From IMG/VR virus record IMGVR_UViG_2671180846_000019: a stretch of DNA of 5,483 nt, one strand, 5' to 3'. Within the stretch, counting starts at the first letter, position 1; each line of letters opens with the position of its first letter. This DNA is from a virus (Duplodnaviria; Heunggongvirae; Uroviricota; Caudoviricetes). Below are positions 3,001 through 5,483 of the stretch, one piece after another. The position numbers were made by a program.

Positions 3001-5483
3001 TTATTGTCTTCCTTTTTTTTGAATGGTGCGCGTATTTTACATACATGAGTTTGTAATACAAGGTGCGTAATCAATATGATGTTTTATAATTGCGTGAGAC
3101 AATTGATTTATTCGTTTTTTATTGCGGTTTTTATTATCTTTTAATGTAACGGTGTTTTTATTAAGTGTGTTTGCGTGGTGTTTTATGTTTTTTATAATTT
3201 TTATTTTATTAAATTTAAAAGCATTAGTAATGGCTATTCTATATAGCAATATAAGAACTGTTACAAAAAAAGGGGGGCAATTACAGGTAGTTATGGATGA
3301 TGAGTGAAACAGATATTGGAGAACCGGGGAATGAATGATGTCTGAGTCTTATATATCAGAACTCCTTCGCTGTCGCTGGGGGCTCCTGTGCTTATGTCGT
3401 TTCCCCGATTCGGTTTTGAACGATTACCGAATGTTGAAGAATTATGCCAAAATATAGAAAGGATTTACTGCATGAATACCCAATATTTACAGTATGTTCG
3501 TGAGCAACTTATGGCAGCTACTGCTGACTTGAACGGAGCAACGAAAGGCCAGCTCGAAGCCTGGCAGGAGCATGCACAATTTGATACTGGTACATACAAA
3601 CGAAAGAAGCCGCGCATTCTGGATGTGGTAACTGGCAAGATGATTACGCTGGATAATACGCCGACTTCCGGTAAGCAGTCGTACGCAAAAGGTTCATCCA
3701 TTGCTTTGGTCAGCCCGGTTGAATTCTCAACCTCTTCATGGCGCCGCGCGGTTTTGTCTCTCGATGAACATCAGAAAGCATGGTTGCTTTGGTGTTACAG
3801 CGAAAGCGTTCGATGGGGGCATCAGGTCACCATAACGCAATGGGCATGGAGCGAGTTTAAAGATTTGTTAAGTAACAGAAAAATTGCAGGTAAGACACTG
3901 GATCGCCTGAAGACGTTAATCTGGCTGGCTGCACAGGATGTGAAGAGCGAACTTGCAGGGCGTGAGGCCTATGAATACCAGACACTGGCATCATTGGTGG
4001 GAGTGACAACAAAAAACTGGTCCGAGACATTTACTGAACGCTGGGTTGCAATGAAGCACATTTTTCTACAGCTTGATAGTGATGCTTTATTGCTTGTGAC
4101 GAGAACACGTTCAAAACAAAAGGCAGCATTTTTACAGCAAAATATTGCAAAACTGGATTAAAAGCCATATACTTCATGCAAATTTGGTATGTTGTAAAAA
4201 ATGTATAAACCCGCTGCCGAGTGGGTTTTTTTTATGCCCTGAGTTGTACTTGTACGGTAAACATGCTGGCTGCTATGTAATAGAGTTTTTTTAGCCTGTA
4301 ACCTCTTGACGGCATTGAATTGCTTTTGTTATGAGTTGTAAGCCAATGTTATCATCTTGTATTGGGGTGGTTATGAAGGATGGTGCGCTGCTCAGGAGTT
4401 CTTCACTTTTTATTGCCTACATGGGATGCCTTGGATGGGGGAGTGCTTATTTCTATGGATGGGGTACTTCTTTTTACTACGGCTTCCCATGGTGGATTGT
4501 AGGTGCAGGTGTTGATGATGTTGCCAGAAGTTTATTTTTTGCAGTTATCGTCATTGCTATATTTCTTATCGGTTGGGGTATTGGTGTTGTATTCTTTTTC
4601 GCAGTGAAAAGAAAACATTCTATGCAAGAGCTAAATGTATTTCGCCTTTATTTTGCTGTGGAATTATTGTTTGTGCCGGCAATTATTGAGTTTTCTATAT
4701 TGAGACAGAAGATTCAGGTACCTCTTTTGCTACTGTCAGCAGCGATTGCGCTGGCGGTTACAATTTCGATAAGATCTTATGGGCGATTTTTATCGGTATC
4801 ATGCTTCTATGATAAGCCATTTATAAAAAAACATTTTTTTGAGATTGTGATGATTGCTTTTGTGGCATATTTCTGGCTTTTTTCATTTCTGACAGGATAT
4901 TACAAACCACAGTTTAAGAAAGAATATGAAATGATTAATTATAATGATGGTTGGTATTATGTTCTTGCTCGTTATGATAATTGTCTGGTTTTGTCTACTT
5001 CTTTCAATGCAGGTAGTAAAAGGTTTGTCATTTATCAATCAGCACAAGATAAGAATCTTCAGGTTGATATTGTAAGGACCAGAATTTAATTGGCTGCATA
5101 AATAATATTTTAAGTTGCAAGTTGGCTATTCGTAGGAATAGAACCTTAGGCATGCTGAATGCGTTTTCTGAACATTGTTTTATAAACTGTGTCTGCTTGC
5201 TGTTGTGATCCTGCTTTTAGTGATGGTGATGATGGATTTCACCAGCAGGATAATGTTGGTACTGACTGATGGCGCTCTGGTCTGCGGCATTGTGGTATTG
5301 CTGTGGCCGATGATGAAAGAACAGAATGAATAATTCTTGACTTTTTTGTTTACTGTTTATTAAAAAATCAACCGCATGGTGAATCCTCCTTGGAGGGGCT
5401 AAATGATCGAGTTTTAAGGGCACGTAGCGAGTTCTGTTTGATCATTGCAGAACTTAGCGGGAGGCGCCATGCGTACATCACTA

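Follow-up and report, generated by a model that had tools for sequence, protein, structure and literature searches.

Identification of a small phage ORF

Does a short, hydrophobic open reading frame (ORF) lodged between a membrane-protein gene and a small RNA (sRNA) gene of a lambdoid phage encode a toxin, a membrane protein at work, or a remnant of something else? The question arises from a stretch of 5,483 nucleotides of the Caudoviricetes record IMGVR_UViG_2671180846_000019 of IMG/VR, hereafter the window, in which a first-pass annotation made from the sequence alone had proposed a small membrane protein or a type I toxin-like peptide. The reading that we favour, with a probability of about 0.6, is that the ORF is an orphaned copy of tciB, weakly translated or untranslated, under relaxed constraint and heading to decay, and that its family serves as a membrane partner of TerB-domain proteins. 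The lambdoid late-regulatory region in which it lies (4100-5483) is 99.9% identical to phage 434, and prophage PP2 of enteropathogenic Escherichia coli (EPEC) E2348/69 is 100% identical to the window at 5090-5483.

The ORF, its alternative starts and its conserved core are located as follows:

5175-5333, + strand: DUF3927/tciB-like ORF
5205-5234, + strand: in-frame alternative starts (GTG 5205, 5220 and 5226; ATG 5223, 5229 and 5232)
5235-5270, + strand: conserved family core DFTSRIM(S>L)VLxD (D21 codon 5235-5237, D32 codon 5268-5270)

The first codon of the open frame is at 5172, just past an in-frame TGA (5169-5171), and its stop is the TAA at 5331-5333; both the coordinates and the translation given by the first-pass annotation were reproduced. 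Its first start codon is TTG 5175, the start chosen by the RefSeq and phage 434 annotators, which gives 52 codons and the product MFYKLCLLAVVILLLVMVMMDFTSRIMLVLTDGALVCGIVVLLWPMMKEQNE. The cluster of GTG and ATG codons described earlier at 5205-5232 is present, and TTG 5175 had not been listed with it. The missing Shine-Dalgarno (SD) sequence, also remarked on earlier, is borne out by an anti-SD duplex energy of +0.4 kcal/mol before TTG 5175. A weak GGUGA (-3.9 kcal/mol) lies upstream of ATG 5232, a start that would drop the first of the two hydrophobic segments. These cover residues 5-20 (mean Kyte-Doolittle 3.38) and 26-47 (2.15), and are followed by the tail KEQNE. Together with membership in a conserved phage family, DUF3927/TciB, they support the proposal of a small membrane protein. 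AlphaFold2, run with the family alignment, predicts a single helix over residues 2-50 (predicted local distance difference test 90, predicted template modelling score 0.48).

Length says little here, as about 25 of the 69 window ORFs of at least 25 amino acids are at least as long. The ORF is judged to be a gene because of homology, 52 codons being unremarkable in the window. It matches Pfam PF13064 (DUF3927) with 53 bits (cut-off 25, E 3.4e-14), residues 7-50 aligning on positions 7-49 of the 53 of the model, and PHROG 1470, labelled 'TciB-like inhibition of cell division or resistance to colicin', with an E value of 2.5e-17. The same protein is listed for EDL933 (900797-900955), E2865 and E2348/69 (E2348C_0687, 740958-741116) as WP_000499454.1, 'DUF3927 family protein', and is annotated 'TciB' in phage 434 (CPT_434_69); the gene family is known, and is already annotated in both RefSeq and phage 434. 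NCBIfam returned one sub-threshold, irrelevant match for the ORF, and the PADLOC defence-system models matched neither the ORF nor its upstream neighbour nor TciB of phage P1. As a gene call, the ORF alters nothing; the result to keep is the near-universal coupling of TerB and DUF3927 genes, with the orphaned copy found here.

The DUF3927/TciB family

The name 'Tci' was made for the P1 tciABC operon, as TciA resembles TerB, the GenBank note reading 'by homology', and later papers on tciB either take over the label or assign no function to the genes. Because the name was given by homology, the wording attached to PHROG 1470 should not be taken as a function. P1 tciB was found to be non-essential by CRISPR interference. 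Essentially one paper mentions DUF3927, in passing, and no paper was found for WP_000499454.

Members of the family are defined by a common layout: about 50-60 amino acids that lead from a short basic N-terminus through one hydrophobic run, the motif DFTS and a second hydrophobic run to a basic tail. The ORF fits it with 52 amino acids, K4, a hydrophobic run at 5-20, DFTSR at 21-25, a hydrophobic run at 26-47, and K48. Conservation of single residues was taken from an alignment of 52 DUF3927 sequences, with at least 90% counted as near-invariant. D21 and D32 are invariant, and R6, L13, V20, F22, S28 and P45 reach at least 90%. On a helical wheel, D21, S24, R25, residue 28 and D32 share one face (240-340 degrees). 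P1 TciB belongs to the same PF13064 family (106 bits, against 53 for the window protein), with which it shares D21, D32 and the W-P-x-x-K end. It has 20 residues before the DFTS motif (P1: MVIKARLILALVFLVLSVLVDFTS...), as many as the window protein, and TTG 5175 therefore stands at the normal start position of the family.

The family is broadly distributed. An exhaustive hidden Markov model search for DUF3927 gave 93 clusters at 50% identity (E<=1e-3). Named members, obtained by a word-index search and all carrying only the label DUF3927, come from Escherichia, Citrobacter, Cronobacter, Salmonella, Klebsiella, Serratia, Kluyvera, Enterobacter and Marinobacterium; tblastn also places the family in P1/P7-like, N4-like (Pollock, FSL SP-058/076), Klebsiella, Actinobacillus and Pseudomonas phages. 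The window version itself is common, its region being found at >=80% coverage in 678 of 5,426 complete E. coli genomes. As 671 of these 678 copies are >=99% identical, this wide, intact occurrence mostly reflects recent spread.

Coupling to TerB genes across phages

In every divergent context examined, the DUF3927 gene lies directly 3' of a TerB-domain gene (tciA) of about 141-146 amino acids, and its start overlaps the TerB stop by 1 or 4 nucleotides. The TerB-DUF3927 pairs comprise:

P1: tciA-tciB
Lambdoid phage Evi: pair between Q and S
E. coli phage: pair upstream of the holin
P2/186-like prophages of Serratia and Klebsiella: pair in the early region
Marinobacterium prophage: pair next to cro

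N4-like Salmonella phages reported to have terB also have a DUF3927 gene. Among the best 80 loci of a context survey of IMG/VR, a TerB gene (at >=85% coverage) stands directly upstream of the DUF3927 gene, which starts with GTG or ATG, in at least 74, and an STnc100/PasD-like element directly downstream in 69. The anti-SD energies of the coupled starts lie between -5.6 and -6.4 kcal/mol in three cases, and at -3.3 kcal/mol in P1 and -2.2 kcal/mol in Marinobacterium. TciA matches the Pfam TerB model with 60 bits in Evi and 28 bits in P1, and DUF533 weakly (23.9 bits, under the 29.6 cut-off). TerB-linked DUF3927 genes compared in pairs show purifying selection, with ratios of non-synonymous (dN) to synonymous (dS) divergence, ω, of 0.14-0.58 at saturated dS; for the pair L022 and L026, dS is 1.20 and dN 0.17.

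This near-obligate, translationally coupled pairing across very different phages gives an uncharacterised family a hypothesis that is concrete and can be tested. Given how tightly a soluble TerB protein is coupled to a helix of about 55 amino acids, with an Asp-Ser-Asp stripe, TciB may be a membrane receptor or co-factor of TciA. TerB proteins have been described as amphitropic, and TerB domains are emerging in the anti-phage systems Dionysus, Bunzi and Shango. In DjlA, at its N-terminal domain, and in YebE/DUF533, a TerB-like domain is tethered to the inner membrane within the same polypeptide. By analogy, the transmembrane segment that is present in cis in these proteins would be supplied in trans by DUF3927 in the phage pair.

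The moron cassette usually consists of tciA (TerB), tciB (DUF3927) and an STnc100/PasD sRNA, and has the Q antiterminator on one side and the lysis genes on the other. Its TciB would be a helical inner-membrane peptide of about 52-60 amino acids, translated by stop/start coupling to tciA, which presents two invariant Asp and a near-invariant Ser on one helical face and may act as membrane anchor, receptor or co-factor of the amphitropic TerB-like TciA. For the phage, the pair could serve in the handling of membrane stress, in superinfection exclusion or in counter-defence. A more far-reaching version, which we consider rather unlikely, would make TciA-TciB a two-gene membrane module common to temperate (lambdoid, P1, P2/186-like) and virulent N4-like phages. 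An Asp-Ser-Asp helix or oligomer would then recruit or gate the TerB protein, for instance in superinfection exclusion, counter-defence or membrane-stress sensing, and the window copy would still be translated, re-purposed with the 247-amino-acid membrane protein encoded upstream of it.

A holin or antiholin role, which the closeness to the lysis genes had suggested, was considered too and rejected: a class II holin is encoded further downstream, and the family also occurs outside lysis regions, since the ban operon of P1 contains it, as do early regions in the P2/186-like and Marinobacterium prophages.

Orphaned state of the window copy

The immediate surroundings of the ORF differ from this arrangement, with the following features upstream:

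4346-5089, + strand: gene for a 247-amino-acid multi-pass membrane protein (alternative ATGs 4331 and 4373; C-terminal soluble domain)
5090-5174, + strand: spacer of 85 nucleotides from this gene to the ORF, lacking an SD, any stop/start overlap and any TerB remnant

The window does not contain the tciA-tciB module. The upstream neighbour, 85 nucleotides off, is the gene for the 247-amino-acid membrane protein, which fills the slot held by the TerB/tciA gene in other phages. Searched by tblastn with six TerB/TciA proteins, the window gave noise only. A TerB remnant in the spacer was tried as a candidate and rejected on this noise and on a local alignment against the 3' end of Evi terB (p 0.68).

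A close point of comparison is the TerB-linked DUF3927 gene of lambdoid prophages (for example phage Evi, prophages of enterohaemorrhagic E. coli, EHEC). Like the window copy, it lies between Q and the lysis genes with an STnc100/PasD-type sRNA downstream, and its DNA is homologous to the window from about codon 12 (5209) on. Unlike the window copy, it follows an intact 143-amino-acid TerB gene, whose stop overlaps its GTG start, has the SD GGAG, and encodes R6, V20 and S28. P1 tciB differs as well, being coupled to tciA (TGATG overlap) and followed by tciC and a tRNA within the ban operon, whereas the window ORF lies in a late operon, without tciA or coupling, and starts with TTG.

The ORF has changed in sequence too. 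Its first 11 codons show only weak similarity to TerB-linked alleles (p 0.02). Among the near-invariant residues, L13, F22 and P45 are kept, while R6 is replaced by Cys (5190-5192), V20 by Met (5232-5234) and S28 by Leu (TTG 5256-5258). The locus is mosaic, with a divergent patch at 5249-5275. After the K48 codon, a 2-nucleotide indel (AG; 5319-5333, compared with Evi, L007 and L031) yields the tail KEQNE* instead of KRNSLHNA*. As the DNA remains alignable through this swap, the C-terminal tail is evidently unconstrained.

With its partner and its translation signals missing, the window ORF is most likely a drifting remnant. In the type of locus that the window represents (phage 434, E. coli PP2/CP-933K), tciA, the SD and the coupled start are gone, with the 247-amino-acid protein gene and the 85-nucleotide spacer in their place. 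Transcription can reach the ORF only by way of the upstream gene or the Q-dependent late transcript, on which it rides as a passenger, and the functional element kept next to it would be the pasD promoter and sRNA of its 3' flank. The locus may be viewed as an example of moron cassette erosion, in which PasD2 and a newly acquired membrane-protein gene are kept and the orphaned peptide gene drifts.

A different arrangement was observed at two EHEC-type loci (L003 and L007, 3543-4004, + strand), where tciA is frameshifted to fragments upstream of an intact DUF3927 gene, only a 48-amino-acid C-terminal piece of it being called. The cassette can therefore erode from either side.

Constraint and decay in sister loci

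The fate of the ORF can be followed in those relatives of the locus that share its upstream gene. The copy of the Escherichia albertii type strain NBRC 107761 is frameshifted, and that of Escherichia sp. MOD1-EC7003 has lost its start region and carries an internal stop, with upstream membrane proteins that are still 94-97% identical. DNA identity amounts to 69-75% (with indels) for the ORF and 63-77% for the non-coding spacer, against 92-95% for the neighbour gene. Between the window and E. albertii, the neighbour gene shows a dS of 0.221, a dN of 0.019 and an ω of 0.09, which indicates strong purifying selection, and the ORF (against locus L013) an ω of 0.47.

A further locus, from E. coli (L015, 3501-3659, P0018), differs from the window by six non-synonymous (Y3C, L5P, M19I, S24R, M46I and E49K) and one synonymous change in the 156 nucleotides of the ORF, and by one synonymous change in the 741 nucleotides of the neighbour (7/156 versus 1/741, Fisher p 3e-5). 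No donor allele for these changes was found among the TerB-linked copies. E. albertii alleles (L013 3501-3695 and L114; P0030, P0048, P0066 and P0071) carry variable 7-nucleotide CTGGAGG units at the DG loop and have lost D32. The units read as LEAGGWR repeats, and a change of copy number by anything but a multiple of three puts the ORF out of frame, as the type strain shows. This variation may represent slippage-driven decay or phase variation. As for the conservation of the reading frame in homologous loci, whose absence the first-pass annotation had named as refuting its proposal, TerB-linked members show purifying selection, and in the TerB-less loci of E. albertii and Escherichia sp. the ORF is broken or degenerate.

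Several points weigh against decay. D21 and D32, the invariant residues, are kept along with the hydrophobic pattern, at least 678 complete E. coli genomes carry the ORF intact, and its transcription per nucleotide is about equal to that of the upstream gene. Translation from a TTG start is possible even where no SD precedes it. Few sites underlie the dN/dS values, and as the locus is mosaic, through recombination between co-resident prophages, some of the divergence may be imported. As for the partnership with TerB, the anchor role is deduced from gene linkage only, the lone helix modelled by AlphaFold being silent on the partners of TciB.

Such points make it possible, if doubtful, that the ORF encodes a functional small inner-membrane protein, repurposed after the loss of TerB and started at TTG 5175 or at an internal ATG; just as tentatively, this protein may be thought to act alone or with the 247-amino-acid protein in lysogenic conversion, superinfection exclusion or membrane stress. 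The presence of an intact ORF with both invariant Asp in hundreds of genomes would be explained, as would its co-transcription at the per-nucleotide level of the upstream gene in uninduced EPEC. Nevertheless, the ORF has substitutions at three near-invariant residues, L015 shows an excess of non-synonymous changes, and E. albertii and Escherichia sp. conserve the partner gene next to an ORF that is disrupted or degenerate. The membrane-protein gene and the ORF stay paired across three Q types, but only within Escherichia at the sensitivity used. Regarding translation, the weak SD-like GGUGA before ATG 5232 favours an internal start, whereas the full-length start has neither SD nor coupling. 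The decaying orphan remains our preferred reading.

Expression and the neighbouring sRNA PasD2

Downstream of the ORF, two features of the same strand have to be considered:

5337-5342 (-35, TTGACT) and 5358-5365 (-10 region, TATTAA/TTAAAA), + strand: putative pasD2 promoter, its -35 beginning 3 nucleotides after the ORF stop
5374 onward, + strand: start of the pasD2 sRNA, inside which the window ends

PasD2 of E2348/69 (741157-741328, 172 nucleotides) is a northern-validated, Hfq-dependent sRNA captured by RIL-seq, the sequencing of ligated interacting RNAs (PMC8550237). It maps to positions 5374-5545 in window numbering, so that window 5374-5483 (+) holds its nucleotides 1-110, and its 5' end lies 41 nucleotides after the ORF stop. 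Rfam STnc100 matches at 5344-5483 with 33 bits, the match being cut by the window end; the full-length pasD copy of phage 434 (L001 4275-4446) reaches 41.4 bits (E 4.7e-7, below the gathering score of 47) and has a GC hairpin and T8 at its end. The literature presents PasD as a relative of STnc100 with links to Q and LpxR, which lies directly upstream of the esterase gene in phage 2B8 (bioRxiv 10.64898/2026.05.13.724894). EDL933 has 11 STnc100 copies, transcribed in lysogeny broth (PMC5331693). The putative promoter is well placed for a 5' end at 5374 and is conserved across locus types, TerB-linked ones included; it is termed putative because the consensus scan did not flag the site. Two gene calls overlap PasD2, CPT_434_70 'putative membrane protein' (5390-5578) and a RefSeq minus-strand pseudogene, and both are probably spurious.

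In uninduced EPEC, the DESeq2 baseMean values are 69 (Q), 226 (membrane-protein gene), 36.7 (ORF), 11,017 (pasD2), 102 (esterase gene) and 3.5 (holin gene) (PMC8550237). Per nucleotide, the ORF is similar to its upstream neighbour and about 300-fold below pasD2.

The stretch might then be no gene here at all, and instead be spacer, upstream promoter context of pasD2 or a late-transcript leader towards the esterase gene. The -35 of pasD follows 3 nucleotides past the stop, the promoter region is conserved where the ORF decays, the indel swaps the tail KEQNE for KRNSLHNA with DNA similarity kept, and pasD2 reads are about 300 times those of the ORF. We hold this to be quite improbable, given that the sequence clearly comes from a protein-coding family (Pfam E 3.4e-14) and that the 5' end of PasD2 lies downstream of it; moreover, it overlaps with the decaying orphan more than it competes with it. 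As to the case that the first-pass annotation had named as refuting its proposal, in which the region would be the 5' untranslated region of the downstream gene, the published 5' end places PasD2 past the ORF, from 5374 on, so that the sRNA does not include the ORF.

The type I toxin hypothesis

The proximity of an abundant, Hfq-dependent sRNA to a small, very hydrophobic peptide without an SD recalls type I toxin systems. Under this hypothesis, the ORF would encode a membrane-depolarising peptide whose translation is checked by an antisense or trans-acting sRNA, with PasD2 as a possible antitoxin. Like Hok, Ldr, TisB, Ibs and ShoB, the peptide is short, very hydrophobic and prophage-encoded; unlike them, it has no antisense or complementary sRNA and no match to a toxin family, and belongs to a family with an operon-coupled architecture. 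PasD2, the one sRNA adjacent to the ORF, is encoded on the same strand, and the complementarity between them is trivial (14 nucleotides at 79%, 20 nucleotides at 70%). The minus-strand promoter for an antisense RNA, which the first-pass annotation had suggested looking for, did not appear: the consensus scan found no sigma-70-like promoter on that strand in 5090-5483. Rfam, at E<=1, returned no toxin or antitoxin RNA family, whether Sok, IstR, Rdl, Sib, SymR or similar. Over the leader and ORF region (5090-5343) no unusual RNA fold was detected (z -0.70), and a structured or riboswitch-like leader was rejected on the same value.

The family context points the same way, as DUF3927 is, across phages, the coupled second gene of a TerB operon, and for P1 tciB, which is non-essential, toxicity is unreported. 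The lack of an SD had been taken earlier as a sign of the translational control of a toxic peptide; the loss of an ancestral coupled start explains it better. Related lambdoid prophages (L003-L008, ~115-702, + strand) carry hok/gef upstream of the DUF968-rusA-Q genes, and the genuine type I toxin of those prophages therefore occupies another position than the ORF. A toxin role thus appears extremely improbable, and the idea can be dropped for this ORF.

Upstream genes and the late transcript

Further upstream, the window comprises:

1279-1641: rusA
2038-2997, - strand: gene for a lipid A deacylase of the LpxR family (137 bits in Pfam), located between the genes of the nin region and Q
3472-4161, + strand: Q82-type antiterminator gene (Pfam Phage_antiter_Q, 306 bits)
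4145-4173, + strand: late promoter-like site TTGCAA-17-TATACT, just downstream of the Q82-type gene
4207-4228, + strand: 9-bp stem of an intrinsic terminator, which extends with its T run to 4236 and is also found in the phage 434 annotation

The segment 4145-4236 resembles the short pR'-tR' transcript that is the target of Q; it gave a weak match to Rfam STnc240 (28 bits, gathering score 55). As the scan found no terminator-like site between this terminator and the window end, the ORF belongs to the Q-dependent late transcript and to whatever transcribes the upstream gene in lysogens.

The 247-amino-acid membrane protein is assigned to PHROG 1521 (unknown function) and bears a precomputed Pfam label, PF27470 'TfpB'. 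The Pfam copy searched, which is without PF27470, gave no match for it, and a literature search on 'TfpB' returned nothing relevant, only chemistry and anaesthesia papers. No relatives were found outside Escherichia in GTDB genomes at the sensitivity used. In EPEC, the mRNA of this gene was recovered in 57 RIL-seq chimeras with the sRNA PasA.

A masked run of 50 N occupies window positions 866-915, inside an ORF at 369-992. For the LpxR moron, linkage with pasD has been reported (bioRxiv 10.64898/2026.05.13.724894). Downstream of the window, in phage 434 and in E. coli genomes, the order is a SASA-type sialate esterase gene, then the holin and endolysin genes.

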